From Candidatus Eiseniibacteriota bacterium (GTDB lineage: Bacteria; Eisenbacteria; RBG-16-71-46): 41,058 nt of DNA. The position numbers were made by a program, and so were the translations under genes. The notes beneath the pieces were generated by a model that was not told where the DNA came from, did no database searches, and worked only from the letters and a program-made list of their open reading frames with translations. The DNA is taken from the NCBI GenBank assembly GCA_903921835.1, contig CAIXRL010000296.1, positions 1 to 41,058 of the forward strand, in the 5' to 3' direction. Shown in pieces: positions 11,806 through 28,456 of the stretch; position 1 is the stretch's first letter, and each line of letters opens with the position of its first letter.

Positions 11806-11821
11806 CGACCAAGGGAACGCC

Positions 11822-12025
11822 GTGACCCTGCTCAATCCGGAAACCTGTCGTCACTGCGGCCACCGAGGCTATGTCATTGACAGTCGCGTTGAGCCTGGCT
11901 ACCGTCGTCGGCGCCACGAATGTCCACGCTGCGAGAGGCGCTGGACGTCCTACCAATCACTGATCAATCCGCGCAAAGTGACGCTCAAATCTCCGCCTTC
12001 AACCAGTCGAGCCACTACTAGCTAG
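11822..12025 (+). CDS. NrdR-like zinc-ribbon protein lacking an ATP-cone (67 aa)
   Basis: GTG at 11822 follows aaggga. CRHCGHRGYVIDSRVEPGYRRRRHECPRCERRWTSYQ matches the NrdR N-terminal pattern CxxC..V.DSR....RRR.CxxC..R[FW]T[ST][FY][EQ]. Confidence 0.55.
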   Translation: MTLLNPETCRHCGHRGYVIDSRVEPGYRRRRHECPRCERRWTSYQSLINPRKVTLKSPPSTSRATTS

Positions 12026-12099
12026 TGGCTGTGGCTGCGCCTGCACTGTTCGCGTGTAGGCTACTTCCGTCTTCAACCTACGGAACGGAGGTCTTCGCC

Positions 12100-12315
12100 A
12101 TGCCTCAGTCAGCCGCCGACCTGCAAACGGAACTGCTGGCGCTGCGCGCTCGGAAGCTGGCCGCGGCCGGCATCCGCTCCACACAGTTCGCCGACCAGAT
12201 GACGGCCTTCGACCATCCCGACCTCGACCAACGCATTGCCGCCATTGAGCGCCAGCTCGCCGTGTCAGGCCGGGGCTCGACCACGCGCTACGCCGCGACC
12301 TCGAAGGGACTCTGA
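12100..12315 (+). CDS. gpW-like head-tail joining protein, copy 1 (71 aa)
   Basis: ATG at 12100 follows ggagg. The size, the position after the large terminase and the core IRSTQFADQMTAF...L..RIAAIERQL resemble lambda gpW (VATVQKDGRRVEFT...L..YIAELE). Confidence 0.6.
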   Translation: MPQSAADLQTELLALRARKLAAAGIRSTQFADQMTAFDHPDLDQRIAAIERQLAVSGRGSTTRYAATSKGL

Positions 12316-12317
12316 CC

Positions 12318-12896
12318 GTGCCTGGTCTCGACATTGCGCGCGCGGAGGCGATCACGGGCTGGATGAGTCCTGGCGAGCTGACCTGGCTCGCCGCGCACGC
12401 CCTCGGCACGCGCACTATCATCGAAATTGGGGCCTTCTGCGGTCGGTCCACGCGAGCGCTCGCCGATCACTGCCCGGGCGTGGTCTATGCGGTGGACCCG
12501 TGGGAAGGCTACGCGAACGACGACGGTAGCCAGGCGAAGTGGATCCTCGAGCAAGGTCCCGGGAGTTGGGTCGCGATCGTCGAGGCGTTCAATCGCAACC
12601 TCGCCGACCACATCGCGTCGGGGCGCGTCGTGCCGGTGCGTCTGCGAGCCTTCGACGCCTACCCAAAGATCAGCGTGCAGCAGTCCTTCCGCGCAGACCT
12701 CGTGTTCGTGGATGGGGACCACCGCTACGAAGCGTGCAAGCAGGACATCCAGCTCTATCGAGACCTCGTCGCGCCGGGTGGCGTGCTCGCGGGCCACGAC
12801 TACGGCAGGAACGACTGGCCGGGCGTCAAGCGCGCGGTCGACGAGCTGCTCGGAAAGGTCAACCACCGCGAGTCAATCTGGTGGATGCGGCGATAA
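12318..12896 (+). CDS. Class I SAM-dependent methyltransferase (O-methyltransferase/Methyltransf_24-like)
   Basis: IIEIGAFCGRST (motif I) and LVFVDGDHRYEACKQDI...GGVLAGHDY are typical of this fold. Confidence 0.8.
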   Translation: MPGLDIARAEAITGWMSPGELTWLAAHALGTRTIIEIGAFCGRSTRALADHCPGVVYAVDPWEGYANDDGSQAKWILEQGPGSWVAIVEAFNRNLADHIASGRVVPVRLRAFDAYPKISVQQSFRADLVFVDGDHRYEACKQDIQLYRDLVAPGGVLAGHDYGRNDWPGVKRAVDELLGKVNHRESIWWMRR

Positions 12897-12972
12897 CGAT
12901 GTCCACGTATCACGTCGATCTGCTCGCGGCTCGCCGCGGTAAACTCGCAACCCACTTGAAGGAGAGAGACTC

Positions 12973-13314
12973 ATGGCTTTTGCACTGACCGCACGACAAC
13001 TCGCCCTCGACGCGATCACCTGTGACCGCGTGTCTCTGCACAGCGGCGACCCGGGCGCGGATGGAGCGAGTTACATCTCGGCGGGTGGCCGGGTGGCCGC
13101 GACGTTCAACGCCGCGAATGCTTCGGCCGAGCGTGTGCTGAACGCCGACGTGAACTTCACAGGTTTGGCGGCGAATGCGTCCGTCACCCATTTCGGCGTG
13201 TGGTTGAACGCCGGCACGGTCTACCGCTGCGGCGCGGCGCTGACTGGGGACCAGACGGCCAATGCCGCGGGGGAGTACACTTTGAAAGGTACGACCACGA
13301 AAATTACCGCGTAG
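12973..13314 (+). CDS. Hypothetical beta-rich protein (113 aa)
   Basis: A strong RBS (aaggagagag) precedes ATG at 12973. The protein is Ala/Gly/Thr/Asn-rich with no enzymatic motif. Confidence 0.6.
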   Translation: MAFALTARQLALDAITCDRVSLHSGDPGADGASYISAGGRVAATFNAANASAERVLNADVNFTGLAANASVTHFGVWLNAGTVYRCGAALTGDQTANAAGEYTLKGTTTKITA

Positions 13315-13316
13315 CC

Positions 13317-13895
13317 ATGAGTGCGCGAGTCGGCATCGGCATTCCACTGGTGGCGCTTCGTGCCAAGTCGCTCGTGAGTCTGTGTCAGAACCTGATTCAG
13401 ACGCACGCCGAGATGGCCTTGCTCATCGTCGAGGGGGCGTACATTCAGCACAACCGGGCGTTGCTGGTGAAGCACGCGCGGGAGCAGGGATGTACGCACC
13501 TGTTCTTCATGGATCACGACATGGTGTTCCCGGCCGACACCGTGGACCGGCTGCTCGCGCACGACAAAGACATCGTGGCGTGCGCCTACAACATGCGTGG
13601 GCGATTTCCGCTCGAAAGCGTGGTAACGCTCCACGATGCTGCCGGACAGCGGGTACCAGATGCCGACCTCCCCGGGGAGCTGTTTCGGTGCAGTTCGCTC
13701 GGGTGTGGGGTGATGCTGATCAAAATCCCGGTGTTCGAGCGCATCGCGCAGCCGTGGTTCCACCTGCACATTGAGGGATTCGACCTCCTCTCGACCGAGG
13801 ACGTATGGTTCTGTAACCAGGCACGGCAAGCCGGAATTGACATTTGGTGTGACCCGACGATTCCGGTCCAGCACCAGGGCGAGTTTCTGTTCTAG
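13317..13895 (+). CDS. GT-A fold glycosyltransferase (family 2-like)
   Basis: ATG at 13317 lies within listed ORF 13200..13895. Motifs: LFFMDHDMVF (DxD-like) and STEDVWFCNQARQAGIDIWCD (ED..FC motif). Confidence 0.7.
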   Translation: MSARVGIGIPLVALRAKSLVSLCQNLIQTHAEMALLIVEGAYIQHNRALLVKHAREQGCTHLFFMDHDMVFPADTVDRLLAHDKDIVACAYNMRGRFPLESVVTLHDAAGQRVPDADLPGELFRCSSLGCGVMLIKIPVFERIAQPWFHLHIEGFDLLSTEDVWFCNQARQAGIDIWCDPTIPVQHQGEFLF

Positions 13896-13907
13896 GGAGG
13901 TGTCCGC

Positions 13908-14336
13908 ATGGCGACTGCACGAGTGACCGGTAACGTCACGTCGAACGTCACGACCTGGGCCGACGTGACGGGGCTGTCGTTTGCCTTGGACGCGAACACC
14001 AACTACTACTTCCGGTTCGTGCTGCACCATTCCAGCGCGGCAACCACGACGGGCATCCGGTTCGGCGTGTCGGGGCCAGCGTCTCCGACGGCGCTGCGCG
14101 TGGGTGGAATGGTGCCCATCAGCACGGTGGCGGCCAACTTCGGGTCGCAGACGGCGTACGATACAGCCATCTTCGCCTCGACGACCGGCACGACGGTCGC
14201 TGTCATGACCATCATCGAAGGGTTGATTCGGAACGCGGGAAACACCGGCAATCTCGCGTGCCGTGTGGCGTCCGAGGTGGGGGCAGCCACGGTGACGGTC
14301 CTGGCGAACTCACACGGTGTCGTGCTGCCCATGTAG
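13908..14336 (+). CDS. Hypothetical beta-sandwich-like protein, paralog of the N-terminal domain of the next gene
   Basis: Over its full 142 aa it aligns by eye to residues 1-145 of the 14343..16163 product (RVTGNV...YYFRFVLHHSS...GIRFGVSGPA..ALRVGG versus RRVTGDV...IYFRYVVHVTS...GVCFAINGPAGTLRVGT). Confidence 0.6.
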   Translation: MATARVTGNVTSNVTTWADVTGLSFALDANTNYYFRFVLHHSSAATTTGIRFGVSGPASPTALRVGGMVPISTVAANFGSQTAYDTAIFASTTGTTVAVMTIIEGLIRNAGNTGNLACRVASEVGAATVTVLANSHGVVLPM

Positions 14337-14342
14337 CCGCGC

Positions 14343-16163
14343 ATGGCTGACACCACCACGATCCGCCGTGTCACGGGCGACGTCAATCTCGATGCGACCG
14401 CTGGGACGCCGGCGGAGATTACCGATCTCAACTTTGCGGTCTTCTCGGGCGAGACGATCTACTTCCGCTACGTCGTCCACGTCACCTCCGCCAGCAATAT
14501 CGGGGTGTGCTTCGCCATCAACGGTCCTGCCGGCACGCTTCGCGTCGGCACGCGGCAGCCGTCCAGTGCGACAGTATGCTCCGGCGCGTCGAGTAGCACG
14601 CTCAACGCCGTCATCTTCGCGGAGACGGCCGGCGGAACGGTCCAGCGCATGTGCCTCGTCGAGGGCGTGTTCATCGCCACGGCCGATGGCACACTGAGCC
14701 TGAAAGCCTGCAACGAAGGATCGGGCGCACTCACCCTCTACGAGAACAGCACTGGGGAGTTTGTCTACACCGAGCGTATTCCGATCGGCTACGGCGTTCC
14801 GGCGCTGACACTCGGCGCGACCGGCGAAGGCCGCAGAGTGAGCTACAGCGCGACGGCGACAGTGGCGCTCACGCTGGCACTGGTGGGCGTGGGCGCGGCG
14901 CTACATGCTGGCTCCGGCAGTAGCAGCCTGACGCTGGGCGCGGCCGGCGTAGGCAAGGCTGTCCATTACGGGGCGGGCGCGCCGGCACTCACGCTCAGCG
15001 CGACGGGTGAAGGTGCGGCTCCGGCCGCGGCCGCGAATAACGGATATGGCGTCCCCGCGCTGACCCTGAGCGCAACGGGTGCTGGCGTCTCCGTCCGCTC
15101 TGGATACGGCGTGCCTGCCCTCACGCTGTCCGCCGCGGGCACGGGTGACGCTCCGCCACTCACGGGCTCCGGCGTCGTCAGCCTGACGCTGGCCACGTCT
15201 GGTGTAGGGCGTGCGGAGCATCGAGGCTACGGGACCTCAGCGCTGACGCTCACGGCTGCCGGCGTCGGAGACATGCCGCCGGCGACCGGCTATGGCACGA
15301 GCGCGCTATCGGTGTCGGCGACGGGCGCGGGTCAGACCGTCACGTCAGGGTCAGGCGCGTCCGCCCTCACGCTGACCGCGGCCGGCGTCGGTGTGTCTCC
15401 TCGGTACGGCGGTGGCACCTCCGCGCTGATGCTGGCGACGACTGGCGCTGGTGTGTCGTCTCGCTTCGGCGTGGGCACCGTCCCGCTGTCGCTGTCCGTC
15501 GGTGGCACTGGCCGCCGCGCCGCGTACGGGAGCCACGCGCTGCCGCTCACGCTGGGCGTCGAAGGCGCAGGATGGTCCGCGCGTGCCGGGTGCGGCGCAC
15601 CTGATCTGTCGCTGGTCGCGGCGGGAGAGGGTGAGGCCCCAGCGGTCGGTGTGCGGGACGGCTCCGGCGTCGTCGTGCTGACGCTGGCGGCGCAGGGCGA
15701 AGGACAGTCTCCCTGCGCGGGTAGCGGGGCTCCGGCGCTGTCTTTGGTGGCGGGCGGGTTTGGGGCGCACGTCTCCACCGGTGTCGGCTCTGTCGCCCTT
15801 GATCTCGACGCCGGTGGCGTGGGAGCACAACCAGCGGTCGCCCCGCATGCTGGCTACGGCACGGTTACGGTCTCCCTGGATGCCACTGGCGCAGGAGAGG
15901 CACTATGCGCTGGCGACGGCGTGGTGTCCCTCGTGCTTGGAGTGGTCGGCTCTGGCGGCGGAATTCCTAAAGGATCGGGCGTCGTCACCCTGACGCTGGC
16001 CTGTCATGGTCACGGACCGGTGGCCTTCCTCGCAAGCGCCAGGGTCTACGTGGTCCCGGATGAGCAGCGTCGCCTCGAGATGGACCCAGAGTCGCGGCGG
16101 TACGTCGTGCTGCGGGAGCAGCGCCAGTTCACGGTCGGTCCGGACGAGTCCTCGCGAGGATAG
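14343..16163 (+). CDS. 606-aa repeat protein: N-terminal beta-sandwich-like domain, 20 tandem ~20-aa Gly/Ala/Ser/Thr-rich repeats and a short charged tail
   Basis: The repeat consensus is roughly G-[YS]-G-x-[PS]-A-L-T-L-[ST]-A-x-G-x-G-x(4-8). I counted 20 units between residues 149 and 562. The tail holds an internal duplication (RVYVVPDEQRR / RRYVVLREQRQ). Confidence 0.75.
   Translation: MADTTTIRRVTGDVNLDATAGTPAEITDLNFAVFSGETIYFRYVVHVTSASNIGVCFAINGPAGTLRVGTRQPSSATVCSGASSSTLNAVIFAETAGGTVQRMCLVEGVFIATADGTLSLKACNEGSGALTLYENSTGEFVYTERIPIGYGVPALTLGATGEGRRVSYSATATVALTLALVGVGAALHAGSGSSSLTLGAAGVGKAVHYGAGAPALTLSATGEGAAPAAAANNGYGVPALTLSATGAGVSVRSGYGVPALTLSAAGTGDAPPLTGSGVVSLTLATSGVGRAEHRGYGTSALTLTAAGVGDMPPATGYGTSALSVSATGAGQTVTSGSGASALTLTAAGVGVSPRYGGGTSALMLATTGAGVSSRFGVGTVPLSLSVGGTGRRAAYGSHALPLTLGVEGAGWSARAGCGAPDLSLVAAGEGEAPAVGVRDGSGVVVLTLAAQGEGQSPCAGSGAPALSLVAGGFGAHVSTGVGSVALDLDAGGVGAQPAVAPHAGYGTVTVSLDATGAGEALCAGDGVVSLVLGVVGSGGGIPKGSGVVTLTLACHGHGPVAFLASARVYVVPDEQRRLEMDPESRRYVVLREQRQFTVGPDESSRG
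14787..16028. repeat. Coding tandem-repeat array (20 diverged units of about 54-72 nt)
   Basis: Derived from the protein periodicity. The DNA copies are diverged, so this is an old or selected array rather than a recent slippage product. Confidence 0.8.
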
Positions 16164-16172
16164 GAGAGGGTC

Positions 16173-16475
16173 ATGCCCATCAAGCGCACGATGATGCCCA
16201 CGTTCGACCCGGAGAGCGCCAAGGATTACGGCGTGCTGTGGGCGAGGTGGCTAGAGGCTGGCGAGACGATCACCGCCTCGACGTGGACACTGCCCAGCGG
16301 TCTCGTGCTGGACGAGGACCACGAGGACGACTTCAGCGATACCGAGACGCGGGTCTGGATACGGGCTGACGAAACGGTCGTGATTGGCGAGAACTACGAC
16401 CTCACGAATCACATCGTCACGTCCGCCGGACGTGAAGAGGACCAGACCATCACCATCCCGGTCCGGTCCAGGTGA
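16173..16475 (+). CDS. Hypothetical small beta-rich phage protein (100 aa)
   Basis: The RBS aggagaggg precedes ATG at 16173. The pattern DP..AKDYGVLWARWL..GETITASTW...G...Y.LTNHIVTSAGREEDQTITIPV resembles small Ig-like phage structural or adaptor proteins, but I cannot name the family. Confidence 0.6.
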   Translation: MPIKRTMMPTFDPESAKDYGVLWARWLEAGETITASTWTLPSGLVLDEDHEDDFSDTETRVWIRADETVVIGENYDLTNHIVTSAGREEDQTITIPVRSR

Positions 16476-17374
16476 CGTCCGTCCCCAGGACGGTCAACGT
16501 CGTCTGCCGTAACTGGCAAGACGATCGGGTCCTGCCGCGTTTCGCTCGGTATCTCGCTGACGGTCTCGGCTGGACACTGGCCGCGACGCCCTGCCCGCCG
16601 GAAGACGTCACCGTGTACTACCTGATGGGTTACTTCGAATCGCAGATGTTCACGGCGTGGCCCAGCGCCAGGCCGACCGCCTCGCTCTTTACGCACCGCG
16701 AAGAAGCGCCAGCCGGCAACGCGAAGGCCGCGCTCTACGACGAGATTGCGTGTCTCGTTGACCTGCGGGTCGCGATGTGTCGGCGCTACGCTGAGCCGCT
16801 GCACGCGATCGGACCGACGATTCAGCCTCCGCTGCCAGTCGAGCGAGACCGCTTTACGATCGCGCCGCCGCCGCGACGCCCCCGCCCCGTCGTCGGTCTG
16901 AGTGGATTCACGTACCACAACGCTCGCAAGGGTGAGGACCTGGTCCGTGGCGTCGTCGCGTCCTCGGTTGGAAGGCGCGTCGACTGGATAGCCAGTGGAC
17001 GCGGATGGCCCACGACCATGCGGAGGTACTCCTGGCAGGAGATGCCGCGGTTCTATCAGGGCCTGAACGTGCTCGTGTGCCCGAGCCGCGTCGAGGGCGG
17101 CCCAATGACGGTCCTCGAGGCGCTCGCCTGCGGCGTGCCCGTGGTCGTGCCCGTCGGCGTCGGCATCCTCGACGAGCTGCCCGACATCCCCGGCATCCAT
17201 CGGTATCCGCGTGGCGATCGCGCGGGCCTGGTCGCGGCACTCGGGCGTGCGGCCTTCCCAATCAACGCGCCGGACCGCGACGCGCTACGCGCCGCCACGG
17301 CGGGCCATACCGTCGAGGCGTGGTGCGGCGCGCACGCCAAGGGCTTCTCCGATGTCGTCGAGGCGAGGGGCTGA
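16472..17374 (+). CDS. GT-B fold glycosyltransferase (GT1/GT4-like)
   Basis: GTGA overlap at the start. The C-terminal motif is VLVCPSRVEGGPMTVLEALACGVPVVVP (the E..EG.P....EA.A.G.PV signature). Confidence 0.75.
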   Translation: MTSVPRTVNVVCRNWQDDRVLPRFARYLADGLGWTLAATPCPPEDVTVYYLMGYFESQMFTAWPSARPTASLFTHREEAPAGNAKAALYDEIACLVDLRVAMCRRYAEPLHAIGPTIQPPLPVERDRFTIAPPPRRPRPVVGLSGFTYHNARKGEDLVRGVVASSVGRRVDWIASGRGWPTTMRRYSWQEMPRFYQGLNVLVCPSRVEGGPMTVLEALACGVPVVVPVGVGILDELPDIPGIHRYPRGDRAGLVAALGRAAFPINAPDRDALRAATAGHTVEAWCGAHAKGFSDVVEARG

Positions 17375-17754
17375 TGGCGTTCGAACCGATCTACTACGCC
17401 CTGCACTGCCAGCCTATCGTCGGCCGATCCTTCAAGGTGGGGCACAACGTGCTGATCGACGGGCATGCGCAGATCACGATCGGCGACGACGTCTTCCTCG
17501 GCCACAACGTCATGCTGCTCACAGGCGGGCACGACCCAGGGCAGCGCGGCCCCGCCAGGCAGGCCGCGGTCCGTGCGGCGCCCATCACGATCGGTGACGG
17601 TGTCTGGATCTGCTCTGGCGCGATCGTCTGCCCGGGCGTCGCGATTGGTGCACACGCCGTTGTCGGACCGGGAGCGGTCGTCATGCGGAACGTGCCCGCC
17701 TGCACCATCGTCGGCGGCAACCCTGCGCGGAAGATTCGGAGGCTGGCGCCATGA
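17374..17754 (+). CDS. Hexapeptide-repeat (left-handed beta-helix) acyl/acetyltransferase
   Basis: TGATG junction at the start. Motifs: IGDDVFLGHNVMLLTGGHD...ITIGDGVWICSGAIVCPGVAIGAHAVVGPGAVVMRNVPACTIVGGNPARKI, as in maltose/galactoside O-acetyltransferase-like enzymes. Confidence 0.85.
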   Translation: MAFEPIYYALHCQPIVGRSFKVGHNVLIDGHAQITIGDDVFLGHNVMLLTGGHDPGQRGPARQAAVRAAPITIGDGVWICSGAIVCPGVAIGAHAVVGPGAVVMRNVPACTIVGGNPARKIRRLAP

Positions 17755-18482
17755 GCACTCGTGGCGTGTATGTCGTGGCGTTCGGTCTCCCAGCCAGGGC
17801 CTGCGCCGATCGCCTGATGCGCAGCGTCAAGCTCCACATGCCAGAGATCCCGATCGCGCTCTGCGCCGCGGAACCGATCGGCCCAGAGGATGTCCTCCTC
17901 GCGCAAGCCGACACCGACGTCGGCGGGCGGCGCGCGAAGCTGCTGGCCTACGAGCTCGCGCCGGCAGAGTGGCAGTCCGTGCTCTATCTTGACGCGGACA
18001 CCGAGCTCGTCGCGCCGGTCTATCCGCTCTTCGAATGGGTCGAAGACGGCTGGGAGTTCGTGATCTGTCGCGACGTCGGCGAGACGCTGCATTCGTTCGC
18101 ACGGAAGGGCAACCTGCAGGAGCTCCGCGAGGTCGAGGCTGCCGTCGGCACCTTGTTCGCGGCGCAGTACAACGGCGGCGTGTGGGCCTTCCGGCGCTGT
18201 CCTGCCGTCGCTCGGTTCATGGCGCGCTGGCGCGTGGAGTGGGAGATTCACGCGCAACGCGACCAAGGCGCGTTGATTCGCGCACTCTACGCCGAGCCGG
18301 TCCGAATCCTCCTTCTTGGCTCTGAATGGAACACCTTTCCGAAATACACGCCGACGGTGACGACCGCTGGGATCCTGCACTATCCGATGGAGGCTCGGCG
18401 TTGGGCTGGGAAGTTGCCCGGGCGCATCGACAACGCCGCGGCGTGGGCGGTCGTGCGGAGATGGGAGGCGAGCCGTCCGTGA
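17751..18482 (+). CDS. Nucleotide-diphospho-sugar transferase (GT8-like GT-A fold)
   Basis: ATGA overlap at the start. Motifs: VLYLDADTELV (DxD) and QYNGGVWAF. Confidence 0.65.
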   Translation: MSTRGVYVVAFGLPARACADRLMRSVKLHMPEIPIALCAAEPIGPEDVLLAQADTDVGGRRAKLLAYELAPAEWQSVLYLDADTELVAPVYPLFEWVEDGWEFVICRDVGETLHSFARKGNLQELREVEAAVGTLFAAQYNGGVWAFRRCPAVARFMARWRVEWEIHAQRDQGALIRALYAEPVRILLLGSEWNTFPKYTPTVTTAGILHYPMEARRWAGKLPGRIDNAAAWAVVRRWEASRP

Positions 18483-18931
18483 CGATTCTCAACCTGGGGA
18501 CCGGAAATCGCGTGATAGGAAACGCCTGTAATCACGACCTGGCCAAGCACCGCCCAGAAATTGATGTGGCCTGGGATCTGAACGAGTTCCCATGGCCGTG
18601 GCCCGACGCGAGCTTCGATCTCATCGTCGCCAGGTCAGTCTTCGAGCACTTGCGCCACGACCTGGTGCAGTCCCTCAATGAATGCTGGCGTCTCCTGCGG
18701 CCCCACGGGGAACTGTTCATCAAGCTGCCGTACTGGCAATCAGACGTCAGCCATCAGGACCCGACGCATCGCTGGTTCTTCAGCCTCCGAAGCCTCGACC
18801 AGTTTGACCCCGACACGAAGCGCGGACAGGAGTACGCGTTCTACACGCCGCGTAAATGGAAGGTCGTCACGGCACCGCAACTGAACAGCGCTGGCTCGTC
18901 CCTGATCGCGAAGCTGGAGGTGCGCAAGTGA
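18479..18931 (+). CDS. Class I SAM-dependent methyltransferase (Methyltransf_11/23-like)
   Basis: GTGA overlap at the start. Motifs: ILNLGTGN (motif I), FDLIVARSVFEHL and LRPHGELFIKLP. Confidence 0.7.
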   Translation: MTILNLGTGNRVIGNACNHDLAKHRPEIDVAWDLNEFPWPWPDASFDLIVARSVFEHLRHDLVQSLNECWRLLRPHGELFIKLPYWQSDVSHQDPTHRWFFSLRSLDQFDPDTKRGQEYAFYTPRKWKVVTAPQLNSAGSSLIAKLEVRK

Positions 18932-20103
18932 TGACGCTGCAGCTCGAGGCGGACCAGGCGACGCTGCGCCGTGACCTGGCGGCCCGCTGTCCCGACTATC
19001 CGCGCCCACCGAAGGTCAAGGCGCAACTGCTCGACTACCAGATGATGGCGCTGTTCCTGCTCGCGCGTGACCAGAACCGACCTGGGGCACGCATTCTCGA
19101 GATTGGCACCGGGCACGGCAGTTCGGGCTGGCTCTTGTCGAGAGCCGCGCCGTTGGCGCGCATCACGTCGCTGACGACGTCGGTTGCTGAGCGGGGGATC
19201 GCCGAGCGGCTCTGGCGGAAGGGGGGCTGCCGAAACATTGTGGTGCGCGTCGAGTCATCCTGGGACGTCCTTGCGCGCGACACCGACGCGTGGGATCTGA
19301 TCTTTATCGATGGCGACCACAACCGGATTGCACGCGACCTGCCCTGGTTCAATCGCCTGCGCGAAGGCGGGCTCCTGCTCTGCCATGACTACTCGCCGCA
19401 GGACAGCCGGTCGCCGAGCGGTATCGTGTTCGCGGAACTCAACGCGATGGCGGAGCGCCTCGGCCGACCGTTCGACGTGCGCGTGATCGACGAGGGCAAG
19501 GTCGGGATGGTCGGGTTCTACTGCGGGCCTGGAGAGACGGTCGACTCCCCACCCCAGCCGGCCCAGGCCGCGACGACGCGCCCACTCTCGTCAGGTGCGG
19601 GCCTCGTGCTGCGGCGGGAAGAACCGCAGACGCGGCAACGCGCCCTCGCGAGTCGGTTGGGCGTCTCGGTGTCCGACGACTGGACGCTCCTCTGGCCGCG
19701 GACGCTGTTCGTCGCCGAGGGAGCGATCGTCCCGTGGGACCTCGTCGGCGCCGGGCTCGAGCTCCTGGCACGCTGGGACCTCGCCGCGCCGCTCGCGCCA
19801 GATGCCAAGCTCGCGCAGGACCTCGGCACGCCAGACGATCGCGACCGCACGCGCGCACTTGTGGGGGACCTCCGCATGCCGACCTATGCGCCGGACCTGT
19901 TGTTCGTCCGTGATTCCGACGCCGGCCGTGCGTGCCTCGAGCGGTGGCGCATCGAATGCGACGGTAGTGATGAGCGCCTCGCCTTCCAGCGGGCGCTCTC
20001 GGCCGTCAAGCCGCGCTTCTGCGCGTTGCCGAGGATCTGGCTGGCGGCCCAGGCCGAGCGTGACGCGATCGACCGGCGGTCCGGCGCCAGGAGTCGGCCA
20101 TGA
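18931..20103 (+). CDS. Class I SAM-dependent methyltransferase (O-MTase-like) with a ~190-aa C-terminal domain of unknown function
   Basis: ATG at 18931 (TGATG junction; GTG at 18928 is an alternative start). ILEIGTGHGSS and LIFIDGDHNRIARDLPWFNRLREGGLLLCHDY parallel the 12318 methyltransferase. Confidence 0.7.
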   Translation: MTLQLEADQATLRRDLAARCPDYPRPPKVKAQLLDYQMMALFLLARDQNRPGARILEIGTGHGSSGWLLSRAAPLARITSLTTSVAERGIAERLWRKGGCRNIVVRVESSWDVLARDTDAWDLIFIDGDHNRIARDLPWFNRLREGGLLLCHDYSPQDSRSPSGIVFAELNAMAERLGRPFDVRVIDEGKVGMVGFYCGPGETVDSPPQPAQAATTRPLSSGAGLVLRREEPQTRQRALASRLGVSVSDDWTLLWPRTLFVAEGAIVPWDLVGAGLELLARWDLAAPLAPDAKLAQDLGTPDDRDRTRALVGDLRMPTYAPDLLFVRDSDAGRACLERWRIECDGSDERLAFQRALSAVKPRFCALPRIWLAAQAERDAIDRRSGARSRP

Positions 20104-21119
20104 ACGCCCCGCGCCTGGTCTCGTGCTACTTCGGGTCCGGCGCTGCCGGTCAATGGCCACGCCTGGCGCGCGTGCTCGAGCTCTCCGCGCGCCGGCATTG
20201 TCCCGAGTGGCAGGTCGACGTGCGGGCGATCGTGCCGACGCGTCTCTCGGTGCCGACGCTCACCGCGGCATACGCCCAGAACACGCAGAAGCTGGAATGG
20301 TGGGCGCAGGTCATCGCGGCGGCTCCGGACGGCGATCGCGTGGCCCTGCTCGACGCTGACACGATGGTGCTCGCATCCCTCGACGCCGTATGGGAGCACC
20401 CGTTCGACCTGGCCTACACCACGCGCGCGGAGGGCCATCCGTTCCCGATCAATGCGGGCGTGATCTTCGTGCGAGTCACCGAACAATCGCGAGCCTTCAT
20501 GGTGTCCTGGCGAGACGAGAACCGTCGAATGCTCGTCGACAGCCAGCGCCACAACACGTGGCGCAAGAAGTTCGGCGGGATCAACCAGGCCGCGCTCGGC
20601 TGCCTACTGCCCCAAGCCGACCACCTGGCGTCGCTGTGCGCGTTGCCGTGCGCCGAGTGGAACTGCGAGGACTCGACCTGGGAGACCTTCACGCCGGGCG
20701 CGACGCGGATCGTCCATATCAAGAGCCACCTTCGCCGCGCGATCTTCCTGGGAGTGGCCGGCTCCGGCTCGCTCGCTCGACTGGTCACGCTGTGGCGCGA
20801 GCGTGAGCGAGAGGCGCTGGCCGATCTGCGGTCCCCTGGGCGCCACCAGGTCATGACGGCCCGCCAGGAGGAGGCCGTCCAACCCTCGGCGCAGAATGGT
20901 GCGCCGATCGCGCCGCCTCCAATCCCGACTCCGCGCCCTCACCTCCAGGCGCGCCCGTTCCCTATGCGGCGCCGTGGACGGCCTCGCGGTCCAGGGACGA
21001 TCGCCACCAACGTGCGGATCCCGCAGTCCACGTACGACGCCTATTGCCGTCGCGCCACGGCGGCGGACAAGCCACTGGCCACCGTGCTCCGAGAAGCCCT
21101 CGTGTCTAAGGCGCTCTAA
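20100..21119 (+). CDS. GT-A-like nucleotide-sugar transferase fused in frame, via a Pro-rich linker, to a ribbon-helix-helix-like C-terminal tail
   Basis: ATGA overlap at the start. Motifs: VALLDADTMVL (DxD) and INAGVIFV. The last ~50 aa (RGRPRGPGTIATNVRIPQSTYDAYCRRATAADKPLATVLREALV) look like a CopG/Arc-type RHH. An in-frame ATG at 20964 could also express the tail on its own. Confidence 0.65.
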   Translation: MNAPRLVSCYFGSGAAGQWPRLARVLELSARRHCPEWQVDVRAIVPTRLSVPTLTAAYAQNTQKLEWWAQVIAAAPDGDRVALLDADTMVLASLDAVWEHPFDLAYTTRAEGHPFPINAGVIFVRVTEQSRAFMVSWRDENRRMLVDSQRHNTWRKKFGGINQAALGCLLPQADHLASLCALPCAEWNCEDSTWETFTPGATRIVHIKSHLRRAIFLGVAGSGSLARLVTLWREREREALADLRSPGRHQVMTARQEEAVQPSAQNGAPIAPPPIPTPRPHLQARPFPMRRRGRPRGPGTIATNVRIPQSTYDAYCRRATAADKPLATVLREALVSKAL

Positions 21120-21174
21120 GTATTTCGTATTTCTTGTAGTCAATAAATCGACAACGGCTCGGGACTGAGCGACG
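21120..21174 (+). promoter_or_regulatory. AT-rich intergenic island at the right cassette boundary (possible promoter or recombination scar)
   Basis: gtatttcgtatttcttgtagtcaataaatcgacaa stands out against the GC-rich background and contains the direct repeat GTATTTC x2. I found no convincing -35/-10 pair. Confidence 0.3.
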
Positions 21175-21390
21175 ATGCCTTCCGAGATGGCATACACCGA
21201 GGCCGACCTGAACTCGATTCGGACGGCGCGCCTCCGGGGCGTGCGGACGGTGCAGATTGCCGATCGCGCGACCACGTACACCTCCGATGCGGAGATGCGC
21301 CAGGTCGAACAGGACATCACGCGCGCGCTCGCCGCTATGGCCAGCACGCGGCGGAAGCGCTCCTACGGCGTCTCGAGTAAGGGCTTCTGA
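21175..21390 (+). CDS. gpW-like head-tail joining protein, copy 2 (71 aa)
   Basis: It lies directly upstream of the portal gene, as in lambda. The core VRTVQIADRATTYTSDAEMRQVEQDI resembles lambda gpW. Its length (216 nt) and its C-terminal ...Y..(T/S)SKG(L/F) ending are shared with the 12100 copy. Confidence 0.6.
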   Translation: MPSEMAYTEADLNSIRTARLRGVRTVQIADRATTYTSDAEMRQVEQDITRALAAMASTRRKRSYGVSSKGF

Positions 21391-21392
21391 CG

Positions 21393-22949
21393 ATGGGCAT
21401 GCTGGGCAGCACGCGCGCGTGGTTCCGCCGTGTGGGCAGCGAATCCGGCGCTCCCGTCCCCACCGTCCGAAACTCCGGGTCGTCTCCCTACGAGGCGGGC
21501 GCGTACACGCGCCGCACGCGGGGATGGAATGCCCCCACCACCAGCGCGAATCAGGCCATTCTCGCCTCGCTCTCGACGCTGCGCGACCGCTCTCGCGCGG
21601 CCACGCGGAACGACGGGTACGCCAAAGGCGTGATCGACAAGCTCGTCTCGAACATCATCGGGACCGGGATCAAGCCATTGTCGCAAGCGGAGGATCCGAA
21701 GTTCCGGCGGGACATTCAGGCGCTCTGGCTGCGCTGGACGTACGAGAGCGATGCGGATGGACTGCTCGACTTCGAGGGTCAACAAGGGCAGGCGGTCAGA
21801 ACATGGCTGGAAGCCGGCGAGGCCTTCGGGCGCATCCGGTTGCGCCTGCCCGCTGACGGACTCTCGGTGCCTCTGCAGGTCCAGGTCCTGGAGCCGGAAC
21901 TGTGCCCCTACCAATACAACATGTTTTCGAGCGGGCTGAAGGTGCGGGCCGGGATCGAATTCAATCTGATCGGTAGTCGATCGGCGTATTACTTCTACCC
22001 GTCCAGGCCAGAGCTGGACGACTTCGACCCCTCGCAACTGCGACGCCTCGATGCCGCCTCAGTGATCCACCTGTATGACCCGTTGCGGCCAGGCCAGTTG
22101 CGCGGCATCCCTCACCTGACGCAGGCCCTGGTCAACCTCTACGAGCTCGACCAGTACGACGACGCCACGCTGGTGCGGCAGAAGCTCGCCAACATGTTCG
22201 CCGGATTCATCAAGCGCCCCGCCGACGTGGGCGACCTCGCCGAGCTCGATACACTCACCGGCCTGAAGGCGGACACTCATGACGGCAAGCCGCTGGCGTC
22301 GTTGGAGCCGGGGCTGATGCAGGAACTCGACCCGGGCGAGGAGGTGCAGTGGTCCAATCCGCCCGACGCAGGCCCGGGCTATCCGGACTTCATGCGCCAG
22401 CAACTCTACGGCGTCTCTGCGGCAACCGGCGTGCCGTACGAGGTGCTGACGGGAGACATGCGGGGCGTCAACGATCGCGTGGTGCGGGTCCTGCTCAACG
22501 AGTTCCGCGGTCGCGTGGCTGCTTGGCAGCACAGCATTGTGGCCCAGGCGTTCTGCCGCCCGATCTGGCGTGCCTGGATGGACCGAGTAGTGCTCTCTGG
22601 CGCGCTGGCCATCCCGCGGGCTGAGTACCTCCGCAATCCCGAGCGCTGGACTGCTGTGAAGTGGACACCGCCGCGGGTGCCATACATCCAGCCGGTCCAG
22701 GACATCGAAGCGCAGAAGGCCGCTATTCGCTCTGGACTCACCTCGCGGAGCGCGACGGTCAGCGAGTACGGCGAGGACGCCGAGGCGATCGACACCGAGC
22801 AGGCGATCGACAACCAGCGGGCCGACGCGCTCGGCCTCACGTACGACACCGATCCGCGGAAGGTGTCGGTCGCGGGACTCACGCAGGTGCAGCCGCCCGG
22901 CAGCGTGCTGCCGGATGACAGTGGCAACAGTGAAGGGACACAGCCATGA
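21393..22949 (+). CDS. Portal protein, lambda gpB family
   Basis: 518 aa. The N-terminal region RTRGWNAPTTSANQAILASLSTLRDRSRAATRNDGYAKGVIDKLVSNIIGTGIKP is typical of lambda-type portals, and the gene order fits. Confidence 0.92.
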   Translation: MGMLGSTRAWFRRVGSESGAPVPTVRNSGSSPYEAGAYTRRTRGWNAPTTSANQAILASLSTLRDRSRAATRNDGYAKGVIDKLVSNIIGTGIKPLSQAEDPKFRRDIQALWLRWTYESDADGLLDFEGQQGQAVRTWLEAGEAFGRIRLRLPADGLSVPLQVQVLEPELCPYQYNMFSSGLKVRAGIEFNLIGSRSAYYFYPSRPELDDFDPSQLRRLDAASVIHLYDPLRPGQLRGIPHLTQALVNLYELDQYDDATLVRQKLANMFAGFIKRPADVGDLAELDTLTGLKADTHDGKPLASLEPGLMQELDPGEEVQWSNPPDAGPGYPDFMRQQLYGVSAATGVPYEVLTGDMRGVNDRVVRVLLNEFRGRVAAWQHSIVAQAFCRPIWRAWMDRVVLSGALAIPRAEYLRNPERWTAVKWTPPRVPYIQPVQDIEAQKAAIRSGLTSRSATVSEYGEDAEAIDTEQAIDNQRADALGLTYDTDPRKVSVAGLTQVQPPGSVLPDDSGNSEGTQP

Positions 22950-24022
22950 GGAACTGGTATCGCATCGAAGCCAAGGCGCAGCAAGACGTGGCTGACGTCT
23001 ACGTGTTCGCCGAGATCGGCAAGTCGTATTGGGACGATGAGACGGTGACCGCGTCGAAGTTCGTCACCGACCTCAACGCCCTGCCGGACGCCGTCAAGAC
23101 CATTCGCGTCCACGTGAACTCGCCGGGCGGGTCCGTGTTCGAGGCGCACGCGATCGCAAATGCGCTCCGGGCGCAACGCAGCGTCAAGGGGCGCGCCGTG
23201 GAGATGACGATCGACGGGATCGCCGCGAGCGCCGCCACCATCATCACCAGCGCGGGCAGCCCGATCCGCATCGCCGATAACGCGATGATGATGATTCACG
23301 ACCCCATCGCGATCGAAATGGGGCCGGCCTCCGCCCTCCGGAAGATGGCCGACGCCCTCGACGGCATCAAGAATTCCATCATCGCCGCCTACCGGTGGGT
23401 CTCACAGAAGACCGCTGACGAGCTCGCCACGATGATGACCGACACGACCTGGATGGACGCGGCACAGGCCATTGAGAACGGACTCGCCACCGAGATCGTC
23501 CAGGGCGCCCAGGTCACGAACTGCTTCCGCCCGGACGCGCTGGCCCGACTCGGCGTGGTGCCCGACCCGTTCCGTGCGCGCGTGGAGGCCATGGCCCAGA
23601 CACCAGAGACGCCGCCGCTGGCCCAGCAACCCGCCGCGGCAGCCGACATCCTGCGTCTCTGCGCGGACGCGGATCTCGACCTGGCCTTCGCCGGCGCGCT
23701 GGTTGCCTCTAGCGCGACCCCCGACCAGGCGCAGGCCCGGATCGCCGATGAACAGGGGATACGCCGAGAGGCCACGGCGCGCGCCGAGACCATCACGGCC
23801 ATCTGCGACAAGGCGAAGCTGCCCGAACTCGCGCAGGGCTACATCGAGGGCGCCATGAGCGTCGATGCCGTGAGCGCCCACTTGACCGTGTTGACGGCCA
23901 AGCTCGACTCCGTCGAGATCGACGGCAGCCTCGCCCCCGATCGGGGCACCACGACCAAGGCTCGCATTGACGTGTCGGCGGTCTACGCCGAACGCAACCG
24001 CATGAAGGAGAAGACATCATGA
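22946..24022 (+). CDS. Head maturation protease (S49/ClpP-like, lambda gpC-like) with a C-terminal scaffold-like domain
   Basis: ATGA overlap at the start. Motifs: VHVNSPGGSVFEAHAIANAL and IDGIAASAATIITSAG. The C-terminal half is A/Q/E-rich. Confidence 0.88.
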   Translation: MRNWYRIEAKAQQDVADVYVFAEIGKSYWDDETVTASKFVTDLNALPDAVKTIRVHVNSPGGSVFEAHAIANALRAQRSVKGRAVEMTIDGIAASAATIITSAGSPIRIADNAMMMIHDPIAIEMGPASALRKMADALDGIKNSIIAAYRWVSQKTADELATMMTDTTWMDAAQAIENGLATEIVQGAQVTNCFRPDALARLGVVPDPFRARVEAMAQTPETPPLAQQPAAAADILRLCADADLDLAFAGALVASSATPDQAQARIADEQGIRREATARAETITAICDKAKLPELAQGYIEGAMSVDAVSAHLTVLTAKLDSVEIDGSLAPDRGTTTKARIDVSAVYAERNRMKEKTS

Positions 24023-24390
24023 GCGTACTGACCGAAGGCCGACACACCGGCGAGTTCCTCCTCTCCGAACTGCCGGGCACTCTCTCGCGCGACACGGCGA
24101 CCGTCGTGGTTCCGGCCGCGACCACGCTCGAACCCGGGACCGTCCTCGGACAGATCTCCGGCTCGGGCCACTACGCGCCCTACGACGACCGCATGTCGGA
24201 CGGACGCGAGGAAGCGGCGGCCATCCTGTTCGACACGCTGGTCAACGCGGACGACGAGCCGGCGGACATGGAAGCGGTCGTCATCAACGCGGGCGCCGAA
24301 GTGCGGGCTGATGCGCTCGGGTGGGAAGCCGGCGTCGACGACGATGGCGGCCTCGTGGCCCTGGCCGAACTGCTGATCAAGGCGCGGTAA
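24019..24390 (+). CDS. Head decoration protein (lambda gpD-like)
   Basis: ATGA overlap at the start; 123 aa. The N-terminus GRHTGEFLLSE and its position between protease and major capsid protein fit gpD. Confidence 0.8.
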   Translation: MSVLTEGRHTGEFLLSELPGTLSRDTATVVVPAATTLEPGTVLGQISGSGHYAPYDDRMSDGREEAAAILFDTLVNADDEPADMEAVVINAGAEVRADALGWEAGVDDDGGLVALAELLIKAR

Positions 24391-24463: not shown

Positions 24464-25453
24464 ATGCCCATGCTCGACGTATTCAAAACCGATGCGTTCT
24501 CGGTGGTCTCCCTCACCGACGCGATCCTGAAGCGGCCCTACCGGCCGGGGCGGATCGGCTCGCTGGGGTTGTTCCGTGAACGCGGCATCACCACGACCTC
24601 GGCCGTGGTCGAACAGAAGGACGGCCAGTTGTCGCTGATCGCGACGTCCCCGCGCGGCGGCCCGGCCAGCGCCATCGGCGGCACGTCCCGCACCGCGCGC
24701 ATCTTCAAGGCGTCGCACCTCGAGCGCGAGGCGAAGGTCATGGCCGACGAGGTCCAGGGCGTGCGTGCCTTCGGGTCGGAGAACTCGACCCAGGCCGTTC
24801 AGGATCTGGTCAACGAGCGGTTGACAGACCTGCGGGCCATGCACGAGGCCACGCTGGAGTACCACCGGGCGGGGGCCATCAAGGGATTGATCCTCGACTC
24901 GAACGGCTCAACCCCGATCTATAACCTGTTCACGGAGTTCGGCATCCGACAGCAGAGTTTCGAGCTGGACCTCGCTGACGACATCCGCAATCAGAGCGTG
25001 GCGATCCAGCGCCTGAGCGAGGATGAACTCGGCGCCGACGCCGTGACCGGCTACCGCGCATTCTGCGGTGACACCTTCTTCGACGCACTGCTCGAGGCCG
25101 ATGCTGTGCAGGAGTCCCTGAAGTATCAGGCCAGCACCCTTCTTCGAGACGACGTACGGAGCGGGTTCCAGTACGGCGGCATCACCTGGGAGAACTACCG
25201 CGGCCGCGTGGGCCAGGTCGATTTCTTCCCGACCGGCGAGGCCTATGTCGTGCCGATCGGGACGTCGATCTTCGCGACGTACTTCGCGCCGGCCGACTTC
25301 ATGGAGGCCGTGAACACGCTCGGCCTGCCGCTCTACGCGAAGATGTTCTTCGACGACGACCTCGGAAGGTGGGCGGCCGTTCATACCCAGAGCAATCCTT
25401 TGGCGCTCTGTCTGCGGCCGAGGGCCGTCATCCAGGTCACGCTCGGCACGTAA
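24464..25453 (+). CDS. Major capsid protein, lambda gpE family
   Basis: 329 aa. The N-terminus MPMLDVFKTDAFSVVSLTDAILKRPYRPGRIGSLGLF is typical of gpE-family capsid proteins. The RBS is gaggag. Confidence 0.93.
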   Translation: MPMLDVFKTDAFSVVSLTDAILKRPYRPGRIGSLGLFRERGITTTSAVVEQKDGQLSLIATSPRGGPASAIGGTSRTARIFKASHLEREAKVMADEVQGVRAFGSENSTQAVQDLVNERLTDLRAMHEATLEYHRAGAIKGLILDSNGSTPIYNLFTEFGIRQQSFELDLADDIRNQSVAIQRLSEDELGADAVTGYRAFCGDTFFDALLEADAVQESLKYQASTLLRDDVRSGFQYGGITWENYRGRVGQVDFFPTGEAYVVPIGTSIFATYFAPADFMEAVNTLGLPLYAKMFFDDDLGRWAAVHTQSNPLALCLRPRAVIQVTLGT

Positions 25454-26874: not shown

Positions 26875-27486
26875 ATGGACAACAATTCCGTTCCGTTCGA
26901 AATCGTCGCCACCGGCGAGGTGGATCTCTACCTGGCGCCGGTGAGCACCCCGTTTCCGACCACGCCGTCCGAGACGCCCCCGGCGCCGTGGGCGCTGATC
27001 GGCAAGAGCGGCGGGCAGAACTACGACCCGGCCGGCATCACGATCGCCTTGGCGCAGAGCACGACCGAGCTGCGCGGCCTCAAGGACGTCGAGACGCGCA
27101 AGGTCATCCGCACGTCGGCCTCGAAGAAGCTGTCCGGCAACGTCTTCGACATCACGGCCGAGACGATGGCTCTCGCGCTCAACGGCAACGCCATCGTCGA
27201 GACGCCTGGCGGCGCAGATAAGGGCTTCCAGACCATCGGGCTGTCGCTCGGGTCGATGGTGACCACCTACGCGCTCCTGATGCGCAGCGTCTCGCCGTAT
27301 CTCGCGGACGGCGCGAGCCAGTGGTGCTTCCCGATCGTCGTGCAGTCGGGCAGCCCCTCGGTCGTCTACAGCAACAACGGCGCGGCGGGCCTGGCGCTCG
27401 AATTCACCGCCCTGGTCGACACGACCCAGGCGGCCGCCAAGCGCTCGGGCTGGTACGAAGCCGAGCACGAGGATGCTTCCAGCTAA
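26875..27486 (+). CDS. Major tail (tube) protein
   Basis: The RBS is aggagag. The gene is 203 aa and lies directly upstream of the chaperone pair and the tape measure gene. Confidence 0.7.
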   Translation: MDNNSVPFEIVATGEVDLYLAPVSTPFPTTPSETPPAPWALIGKSGGQNYDPAGITIALAQSTTELRGLKDVETRKVIRTSASKKLSGNVFDITAETMALALNGNAIVETPGGADKGFQTIGLSLGSMVTTYALLMRSVSPYLADGASQWCFPIVVQSGSPSVVYSNNGAAGLALEFTALVDTTQAAAKRSGWYEAEHEDASS

Positions 27487-28100: not shown

Positions 28101-28456
28101 GACGAGACGACTGGGGCGAGTTGATTCCGCGCCTCGTCGCCAGATATGGGGGCGACGCGATGACCTGGCTCGATCGAACCCCGCGCGCCATCGTCCGAGC
28201 CTGCCTCCTGATGTTGCCGCGGCTCCAGGCGGAGGAATCATTACTGACATCGCAGCGGATCGCCGTGGGAACCGGGTCCATGAAATCAGCCGACAGTCGG
28301 CAGATCACGAGTGGCTGGATCAGGGCGATGCGTAACCAAGGAACATCGATGGCGCCAGGCCCCTCGTCGAAAGCGTCCATCCGCGCGTTTTGCGCGAATG
28401 GTGGCATGGGGTACGTCAGAACGCCGAAACCGTCACGGGTCGATACGCAGCCATGA
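28097..28456 (+). CDS. gpT-like ORF, probably expressed as a G-T fusion by -1 frameshifting
   Basis: It is in the -1 frame relative to 27696..28100. That frame is open for more than 200 nt upstream of the nominal GTG at 28097. The stop overlaps the tape-measure ATG (ATGA). Confidence 0.5.
   Translation: MRRDDWGELIPRLVARYGGDAMTWLDRTPRAIVRACLLMLPRLQAEESLLTSQRIAVGTGSMKSADSRQITSGWIRAMRNQGTSMAPGPSSKASIRAFCANGGMGYVRTPKPSRVDTQP

Follow-up and report, generated by a model that had tools for sequence, protein, structure and literature searches.

A candidate virion glycosylation cassette in the late head operon of an uncultured lambda-like siphovirus

Introduction

To our knowledge, glycosylation of the virion has been shown experimentally, among the tailed phages, only in the mycobacteriophages. 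There it dampens recognition by antibodies. The present analysis concerns a group of seven closely packed genes at positions 16,173 to 21,119 of contig CAIXRL010000296.1, whose 41,058 nucleotides, an entire contig of a metagenome bin, form the window referred to throughout. The window belongs to an uncultured lambda-like siphovirus of a high-G+C (guanine plus cytosine) lineage. Six of the seven genes, genes 2-7, are read here as a late-expressed cassette for virion glycosylation, which would place a small modified glycan on a part of the virion, and we would give this reading about an even chance of being correct.

In phage Corndog an O-methyltransferase and three glycosyltransferases are encoded between the genes for portal and protease, and the products of this cassette are soluble and are not components of the virion (PMC4351075). 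The acceptor of the mycobacteriophage glycan is reported to be C-terminal extensions of the capsid and tail-tube subunits (Freeman et al. 2023, Cell Host Microbe 31:1216, as summarised in PMC12619734). Gene clusters for the hypermodification of phage DNA can also lie near structural genes (bioRxiv 10.1101/2023.12.21.572611). Which molecule do the enzymes described here decorate, and why are they encoded among the head genes of a phage?

Results

The enzymes of the cassette

An earlier note on this DNA had described the seven genes as a single soluble glycan-tailoring operon. The description holds for genes 2-7, which make up a soluble glycan-building and tailoring set. Gene 1, whose 100-amino-acid (aa) product had been counted among the tailoring proteins, is instead structural and belongs to a fibre module. 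The features, together with a further methyltransferase upstream, are as follows.

16173-16475, plus strand: gene 1, structural Gp77-type fibre-tail adaptor, 100 aa (PF23148, E = 8e-18, 65.2 bits against a cut-off of 27)
16472-17374, plus strand: gene 2, GT4-family GT-B glycosyltransferase, 300 aa (PF00534 and PF13692 above cut-offs)
17374-17754, plus strand: gene 3, short LacA/Maa/WcaF-type hexapeptide O-acetyltransferase, 126 aa (PF00132; WcaF-family model E = 1e-24)
17751-18482, plus strand: gene 4, GT8-like retaining GT-A glycosyltransferase, 243 aa (homologues with PF01501; predicted fold)
18479-18931, plus strand: gene 5, compact class-I S-adenosylmethionine (SAM) methyltransferase MT11, 150 aa (PF08241 E = 5e-10; phrog_6636 over residues 2-104)
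18931-19584, plus strand: gene 6, N-terminal part, residues 1-218, Methyltransf_24 domain MT24b (PF13578 E = 6e-10)
19585-20103, plus strand: gene 6, C-terminal part, residues 219-390, domain X, GT-A-like without DxD (GT8 profile comparison)
20100-20840, plus strand: gene 7, catalytic part, GT8-clan/GT77-like GT-A glycosyltransferase (homologues with PF03407; predicted fold)
20967-21119, plus strand: gene 7, tail, AT-hook-like RGRPR and then a ribbon-helix-helix (RHH) (tail profile; predicted helices)
12318-12896, plus strand: MT24a, Methyltransf_24 methyltransferase, 192 aa (PF13578 E = 9e-18)

The GT-B assignment given to gene 2 in the earlier note agrees with its two GT4-family domains, and the E-x7-E stretch (EGGPMTVLE) is kept in the C-terminal Rossmann domain, where it aligns to WaaB (PDB 5n7z). 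The protein is 80% identical to its counterpart in the related contig L005, 65% to that in L018 and 48-55% to those in three HK97-type phages (L017, L019 and L020). Gene 3, called a hexapeptide acyltransferase, bears this out through its PF00132 and WcaF-family matches and through LacA (PDB 1kqa), which is matched at E = 1.2e-19 over LacA residues 66-185 with the catalytic His of the GH-P motif kept. Both the gene 3 product and its L005 orthologue are without about 65 N-terminal residues of LacA.

For genes 4 and 7, direct searches of Pfam, NCBIfam and PDB sequences gave nothing above threshold; PF01501 (gene 4) and PF03407 (gene 7) are found on homologues only, and the assignments were made via homologue profiles and predicted folds. 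On this basis the GT8-like call for gene 4 stands. Its D81 and D83, the DxD motif, and H210, the C-terminal His metal ligand, are invariant in the alignment; the AlphaFold2 model has a pLDDT (predicted local distance difference test) of 90.5, and the top Foldseek matches are LgtC, LARGE1, glycogenin and UGGT, with GT6 enzymes also found. Some gene 4 homologues are fused to GT4. In gene 7 the equivalent D85, D87 and H206 are invariant among homologues, and the model (pLDDT 86.7) has the predicted GT-A fold expected from the earlier call, with Foldseek matches to the GT8 protein 3tzt, GlyE, glycogenin, UGGT, GlaT1 and PBCV-1 A64R; the gene 7 profile also matches GlaT1 (6mw5) at E = 2e-4. Comparison of the two family profiles (hhalign 95.9%) indicates that genes 4 and 7 are distantly homologous. 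With DxD and the C-terminal His ligand present, both belong to the CAZy GT8 clan of retaining GT-A enzymes.

The methyltransferase assignment of gene 5 is supported by PF08241. Could a protein of only 150 aa be a truncated fragment? This was ruled out by its length, kept at 150-156 aa in five relatives (L005, L017, L018, L019 and L020), and by the coverage of residues 2-104 by phrog_6636. Gene 6 had been described as a second methyltransferase with an extra domain, and here PF13578 confirms the Methyltransf_24 part, which L018 encodes as a gene of its own (206 aa, 64% identical) and L005 lacks. The extra domain is also real, since L005 has a stand-alone protein of 172 aa that shares 76% identity with it, but it is GT-A-like and without DxD, so that it may be non-catalytic. 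Domain X is matched by 405 cluster representatives at E <= 0.001, and its profile aligns with the GT8 profile with an hhalign probability of 94% (E = 1.3e-7). None of the 32 aligned members has a conserved Asp at the DxD columns. As a homologue of GT8 enzymes that lacks these residues, X is probably a non-catalytic, GT-A-derived domain.

X-family proteins of the HK97-type phages contain a brief repeated motif, LVxVExxPGRxVKC-like, followed by a helix-hairpin-helix (HhH), either separate or fused, and the motif forms a C-terminal extension in many aligned X homologues. The HhH-linked X proteins are found at L020 10196-11236, L017 12744-13843 and L019 10430-11553.

MT24a is 67% identical to the methyltransferase of the minimal cassette in L004. 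It had been considered a paralogue of MT24b on account of a shared DGDH...(G/C)HDY layout. The layout is indeed common to both, but the kinship is distant (BLASTP E = 3e-5 over 40 residues). As to whether the enzymes might be inactive, the motifs as aligned point the other way, since both GT-A enzymes keep DxD, the GT4 keeps EX7E, the acetyltransferase its catalytic His and the methyltransferases SAM motif I.

The products had also been described as free of obvious membrane segments. A Kyte-Doolittle hydropathy scan, a crude test, agrees in finding no convincing membrane helix in the cassette products, and the two highest windows fall within conserved fold cores, a GT-B strand and a beta-helix coil. 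Family scans of the cassette products detected no nucleotide-sugar synthesis, flippase, polymerase or phosphoglycosyl-transferase genes, and there is no Wzx or Wzy among these open reading frames (ORFs).

The tail of gene 7

Gene 7 ends with a Pro-rich linker and then a G-R-P motif that is invariant in 12 tailed homologues. The tail profile matches the RHH proteins AvtR (4hv0, E = 0.004) and VapB26 (E = 0.006), RHH_1 matches two of the 12 tailed members, an Arc-like PHROG is matched at E = 5e-4, and the predicted model has two C-terminal helices at a pLDDT above 90. Most members of the gene 7 family are without the RHH tail. Directly after the stop codon lies a further feature.

21115-21154, no strand: AT-rich patch, candidate operator or promoter (28% G+C; GTATTTC twice)

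This patch is the lowest-G+C 40-nucleotide window of the whole 41-kb contig, the next lowest being at 40%, and visibly A/T-rich stretches are found at the corresponding place in L004, L005 and L006. The AT-hook/RHH tail is probably well suited to bind it, which would suit a predicted operator or tethering role. In a scan of genome contigs, matches were limited to two Longimicrobium metagenome-assembled genome (MAG) contigs and one MAG contig labelled Akkermansia. The bacterial family member in Longimicrobium lies in an unrelated biosynthetic neighbourhood of amino-acid or ATP-grasp type.

Position within the late head operon

From left to right the genes run from a Nu1-like small terminase and a gpA large terminase, through a block of 9 kb that holds the cassette, to gpW and a lambda-family portal. 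A ClpP protease, gpD at 24019-24390, the gpE capsid at 24464-25453, FII, gpZ, the major tail protein and a 1338-aa ORF follow the portal. The features that bound the block, and the 1338-aa ORF, are these.

9928-11805, plus strand: large terminase subunit, gpA type, left bound of the block (PF05876 E = 3e-73; PF20454 E = 7e-84)
12100-12315, plus strand: gpW-like paralogue, 71 aa, left edge of the inserted block (BLASTP against the 21175-21390 copy E = 5e-6, 29% identity, full length)
21175-21390, plus strand: gpW head-tail adaptor, right bound (phrog_2545 E = 7.5e-16)
21393-22949, plus strand: lambda-family portal, right bound (PF05136 E = 6e-105)
28390-32406: presumed tape measure, 1338 aa (size and position; weak TMP_3 match at the same place in L010)

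No sigma-70-type promoter-like or intrinsic-terminator-like sites were found at 11700-21500, and the block, with no promoter or terminator of its own, is read through together with the late head operon. Family scans detected no integrase families on the contig. The twin contig L010, a near-identical 44.5-kb European Nucleotide Archive metagenome contig annotated by an independent gene caller, provides a check on the gene calls, and comparison with it places about 3.4 kb of the roughly 44.5-kb phage genome outside the 41-kb window.

The two 71-aa gpW-like paralogues (12100-12315 and 21175-21390) bracket the whole inserted block, and the gene caller used for L010 also calls the counterpart of the first as a 71-aa gene. 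With a gpW paralogue at both edges, the arrangement is consistent with entry of the block by recombination at gpW.

The nearest cultured-phage large terminase is at most 42% identical. When 50,697 GenBank phage records were searched, by megablast with the region and by tblastn with GT4, GT8 and GT77, there was no match, and distant matches were obtained only for the large terminase (<=42% identity), Gp77 and MT24a.

Recurrence in other phages

The relatives were taken from the neighbourhoods of gene 4 and gene 7 homologues. A variable cassette of glycosyltransferases and methyltransferases is present at the same spot, between terminase and gpW, in seven other lambda-type contigs (the P0003 contig, L004, L005, L006, L007, L008 and L018). 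In six of the seven the cassette ends, or nearly ends, with a member of the gene 7 family, and in L007 this member comes first, directly after the terminase. The smallest cassette, in L004, consists of a 120-aa ORF, an MT24, a 279-aa protein and a GT77+RHH gene, and in L018 the GT4, GT8, MT11, MT24, X and GT77 are all separate genes.

In comparison with L005, DNA identity is 82.5% over the terminase region, 79.6% over genes 2-5, 73.8% over X and gene 7, and 67-69% over the portal and head genes. Nothing in L005 corresponds to positions 12100-16475 or to the MT24 half of gene 6. The block is therefore a mosaic of at least three units.

The core of GT4, GT8, MT11 and X also reaches beyond the lambda type, being found at 40-60% protein identity in three HK97-type siphoviruses (L017, L019 and L020). 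These have a PF04860 portal, an S78 protease and a PF05065 capsid, with no detectable portal or capsid similarity to the phage of the window, and the core directly follows the major capsid gene and precedes the genes for head completion. Their cassettes end with a helix-hairpin-helix protein or, in L020, with an X-HhH fusion. In addition, L014, a contig of a MAG labelled Akkermansia, encodes at 8419-9849 a 476-aa fusion of a GT77-like and a Methyltransf_24 domain, shortly downstream of the portal and protease genes of a Mu-type head module (Portal_Mu, Mu-like protease). The fusions of GT8 with GT4, of MT24 with X (in the window; separate in L018), of X with HhH and of GT77 with MT24 link the parts of the cassette functionally.

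Two proteins of the HK97-type cassettes, at L017 9999-10715 (238 aa) and L019 9298-10053 (251 aa), have faint sulfotransferase-family matches (E = 0.01-0.05), a hint that sulfation may be an additional tailoring step there. In L004 a bAvd gene (PF22296) at 20597-20995, close to the tail genes, suggests a diversity-generating retroelement.

Gene packing and coupling

The earlier note had listed six overlaps between the seven genes, and direct reading and recomputation found all of them in place: GTGA at 16472-16475 between genes 1 and 2, TGATG at 17372-17376 between genes 2 and 3, ATGA at 17751-17754 between genes 3 and 4, GTGA at 18479-18482 between genes 4 and 5, TGATG at 18929-18933 between genes 5 and 6, and ATGA at 20100-20103 between genes 6 and 7. 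Each is an overlap of -1 or -4 nucleotides. The independent calls on L010 give the same seven products of 100, 300, 126, 243, 150, 390 and 339 aa. Among the 23 late-operon junctions tabulated, overlap is seen at six of six within the block and at four of 17 elsewhere in the same plus-strand operon (post-hoc Fisher test, p = 0.002). Such overlaps are conserved in L005, L017, L018, L019 and L020, with six successive -4 overlaps in L018 and junctions mostly of -1, -4 or -8 in L017, L019 and L020; those of Corndog gp34-38 are -4, -8, -4 and -4. Conservation across related cassettes and Corndog therefore marks the packing as real and as typical of such cassettes.

It had further been proposed that the overlaps imply stoichiometric co-expression. 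This does not follow. Overlaps permit coupling but do not imply a 1:1 ratio, they are common in this late operon, and a GGAGG-like Shine-Dalgarno sequence also stands 7-12 nucleotides upstream of five of the six downstream genes, so that translational coupling is possible but, as judged from these sites, not obligatory.

The fibre module and other neighbouring genes

Gene 1 stands at the end of a set of genes that precede it on the same strand.

12973-13314, plus strand: Gp80-like fibre protein, 113 aa (PF23140 at 29.3 bits, cut-off 27)
13317-13895, plus strand: small GT2-like GT-A protein, 192 aa, inside the fibre module, tentative (phrog_1574 E = 3.5e-23; weak phrog_12406 match)
13908-16163, plus strand: 142-aa knob protein and 606-aa Gly/Ala/Ser/Thr repeat fibre protein (translations)

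The Gp80-like, 142-aa and 606-aa proteins together with gene 1 form, to judge from their matches and composition, a GP4-like fibre module. With tblastn, gene 1 has matches in 74 actinophage or cyanophage records, several of which adjoin minor tail genes. In L008 the genes for a 597-aa protein, Gp80 and Gp77 are upstream of the small terminase and outside the cassette, and fibre genes were not found in the compared stretch of L005, which has the same enzymes at 77-92% identity. Gene 1 is thus tied to gene 2 by position only. The same two contigs led to the rejection, as a general rule, of the idea that the enzymes are specific for the neighbouring repeat fibre, although that fibre is a possible target in this phage.

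The 13317-13895 product has readable FMDHDM and STEDVWF motifs, and phrog_12406 is a glycosyltransferase family; comparison with the GT8 profile showed no relationship. It would tentatively be a fourth glycosyltransferase of the block.

Elsewhere, the 449-aa ORF at 8582-9931 is not one gene, since L010 calls there a RusA (176 aa), an HNH (167 aa) and a Nu1/DUF1441-like small terminase (206 aa). A 67-aa ORF at 11822-12025, between the terminase and the first gpW-like gene, has an NrdR-type zinc ribbon (PF22811) at 26.3 bits against a cut-off of 27.2. The early region holds a recombination module of a RecT-family annealase and a PD-(D/E)XK nuclease (2476-3609 and 5632-6285).

Discussion

The location of the enzyme genes among head genes, and the recurrence of their core in unrelated head modules, are what point to a coat of glycan on a virion part as the most likely outcome. 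According to this reading the enzymes would work late in infection with host nucleotide-sugars, acetyl-CoA and SAM, as no sugar-synthesis genes are present. The three glycosyltransferases, of the GT4, GT8 and GT8-clan/GT77 types, would build a short oligosaccharide, which would then be tailored by two or three O-methyltransferases and one O-acetyltransferase. It would be attached to a soluble acceptor in the cytoplasm, and the likeliest acceptor is a protein of the virion, for instance the capsid shell or the fibre encoded nearby. The DxD-less X would probably act as a non-catalytic acceptor-binding or scaffolding partner, and the AT-hook/RHH tail of gene 7 probably binds the AT-rich patch just downstream, for regulation or tethering. 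The outcome would be a glycan-coated virion as in Corndog, reached by unrelated enzymes. Support comes from the structural neighbours of gene 7, which include the protein-glycosylating GlyE, glycogenin and GlaT1 and the PBCV-1 capsid glycosyltransferase A64R.

Several points weigh against virion glycosylation. The target is inferred from genomic context only, and head modules may merely tolerate the insertion of late-expressed genes. The capsid is flush with its Pfam model, PF03864 covering residues 13-326 of 329, with no C-terminal extension, and the C-terminus of the tail-tube protein encoded at 26875-27486 shows, by reading, no obvious tail rich in Ser and Thr. Similarity to Corndog gp35-38 was not detectable for any of the enzymes, the best BLASTP match (E = 0.02) covering only the SAM motif and the glycosyltransferase pairs all giving E > 0.1. 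The nearest characterised relatives of the enzymes (WaaB, LgtC and WcaF) act on envelope glycans. Finally, protein glycosylation does not require the DNA-binding parts that are present in both lineages, AT-hook/RHH here and HhH in the HK97 type.

Might the enzymes instead remodel the envelope of the host? They would then act at the inner face of the membrane on lipid-linked intermediates of host O-antigen, capsule or exopolysaccharide, and the altered cell surface could, for instance, block superinfection or prevent released virions from re-adsorbing to debris. This is unlikely. In its favour, the best characterised relatives, the WcaF family (E = 1e-24), the WaaB lipopolysaccharide (LPS) galactosyltransferase and LgtC, are envelope-glycan enzymes, and the host could supply the missing flippase and polymerase. 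The earlier note had argued from the lack of membrane segments to a cytoplasmic acceptor rather than an envelope polysaccharide, which is a weak inference. Glycosyltransferases for O-antigen or capsule are usually soluble, peripherally attached proteins, normally without membrane segments, so that solubility does not exclude an envelope target. The argument against such a target is one of context. The cassette lies inside the late head operon with no promoter or terminator of its own, unlike classic conversion genes, which adjoin an integrase or attachment site, and the contig showed no integrase; in both lambda-type and HK97-type lineages its neighbours are capsid or portal genes, with a GT77-MT24 fusion in a Mu-type head module. 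Moreover, its Pfam families include no GtrA/GtrB/GtrC or acyltransferase_3-type (Oac) membrane proteins, and late-only lytic expression would leave little time for a change of surface. A quite improbable reading is that the AT-hook/RHH tail or the HhH brings the enzymes to DNA, where they glycosylate it or a DNA-associated protein around packaging. The RHH-like tail with its invariant GRP motif, the HhH as last gene or domain in L017, L019 and L020 and the location between the packaging (terminase) gene and the portal gene all fit, and WaaJ/WaaO-related GT-A enzymes are known to extend glycans on 5-hydroxymethylcytosine (5hmC) DNA (bioRxiv 10.1101/2023.12.21.572611). DNA had indeed been named in the earlier note as a possible acceptor, but the genes required for this, for a thymidylate-synthase-like hydroxymethylase, a TET/JBP dioxygenase or a C5 cytosine methyltransferase, were not found: PF00303, PF12851 and PF00145 have no match on the contig (41 kb of the phage genome of about 44.5 kb) or in the whole bin. 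In the absence of base-hydroxymethylation enzymes, DNA offers no known hydroxyl for glycosylation. All three methyltransferases, moreover, are of small-molecule or O-methyltransferase types (PF13578, PF08241) and not of DNA methyltransferase families, and the RHH tail is missing in most family members. It is very unlikely, too, that the cassette encodes a DNA-tethered glycosylation machine, in which X-HhH in the HK97 type and the AT-hook/RHH tail in the lambda type would bring the enzymes to phage DNA at packaging and so modify DNA, or a DNA-bound head protein, without hydroxymethyl-pyrimidines.

We hold it to be least probable of all that the enzymes make or alter a soluble metabolite, a small molecule or nucleotide-sugar, with no macromolecule decorated. 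All of the products are soluble by the hydropathy scan, LacA/Maa-type acetyltransferases act on free sugars, and the biosynthetic neighbourhood of the Longimicrobium homologues of gene 7 would fit, but a series of three or four glycosyltransferases, with a conserved GT-like partner that is non-catalytic, suggests that an oligosaccharide is assembled on a defined acceptor, and the constant head-module location would be left unexplained.

If virion glycosylation is the correct reading, glycan coats would be a widespread and horizontally exchanged trait of environmental phages rather than an actinophage oddity, and the variable content of the cassettes would be a ready source of surface diversity. 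The core of GT4, GT8, MT11 and X moves between unrelated head modules and is always beside capsid or portal genes. The set would also offer a defined group of genes open to testing in E. coli, among them a candidate for a non-catalytic partner and one for a DNA-binding regulator.

Comparison with known systems

The Ralstonia podophage GP4, with its fibre I (gp80 and gp77), resembles this locus in that gene 1 matches Gp77 and the 12973-13314 product matches Gp80 above the Pfam cut-off. Here, however, the phage is a siphovirus and the genes lie between terminase and portal, and among the seven genes the likeness concerns gene 1 only. Lysogenic-conversion systems for O-antigen modification of the Gtr/Oac type have membrane proteins and a separately expressed moron near an integrase or attachment site; neither such membrane-protein families nor an integrase were found here. 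The sugar-hypermodification clusters of phage DNA are similar in having phage GT-A and GT-B enzymes that are related to LPS enzymes, add one to three sugars and are sometimes encoded near structural genes, and one glycosyltransferase here has a DNA-binding tail; the base-hydroxymethylation genes that define such clusters were not found.

The glycosylation of serine-rich-repeat adhesins (the GT4 enzymes GtfA/B with GT8 enzymes such as GlyE), like that by glycogenin, Skp1 GlaT1 and A64R, resembles the cassette in that a soluble GT4 and GT8-clan GT-A enzymes work in the cytoplasm, and here too a Gly/Ala/Ser/Thr-rich repeat protein is encoded next door. The similarity is at the level of the fold only (12-17% identity), and the same fold includes LPS enzymes such as LgtC. 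In contrast to the adhesin systems there is no accessory secretion system here, and no fibre module is seen in the compared stretch of relatives that share these enzymes.

The nearest likeness is to gp35-gp38 of Corndog (Cluster O) and to Che8, where glycosyltransferase and O-methyltransferase genes are also tightly packed in the head operon and have soluble products. The enzyme families differ, as those here are GT4, the GT8 clan, a hexapeptide acetyltransferase and PF13578/PF08241 methyltransferases, with no detectable sequence similarity. The insertion site here is from terminase to gpW, a DxD-less GT-like partner and a DNA-binding tail are present in addition, the host, so far as one can tell, is no actinobacterium, and the function of the cassette here is a predicted one. 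The relation to the Corndog system is thus best described as one of analogy, not membership. What is new here is a candidate head-module glycosylation cassette that reaches across phage lineages.

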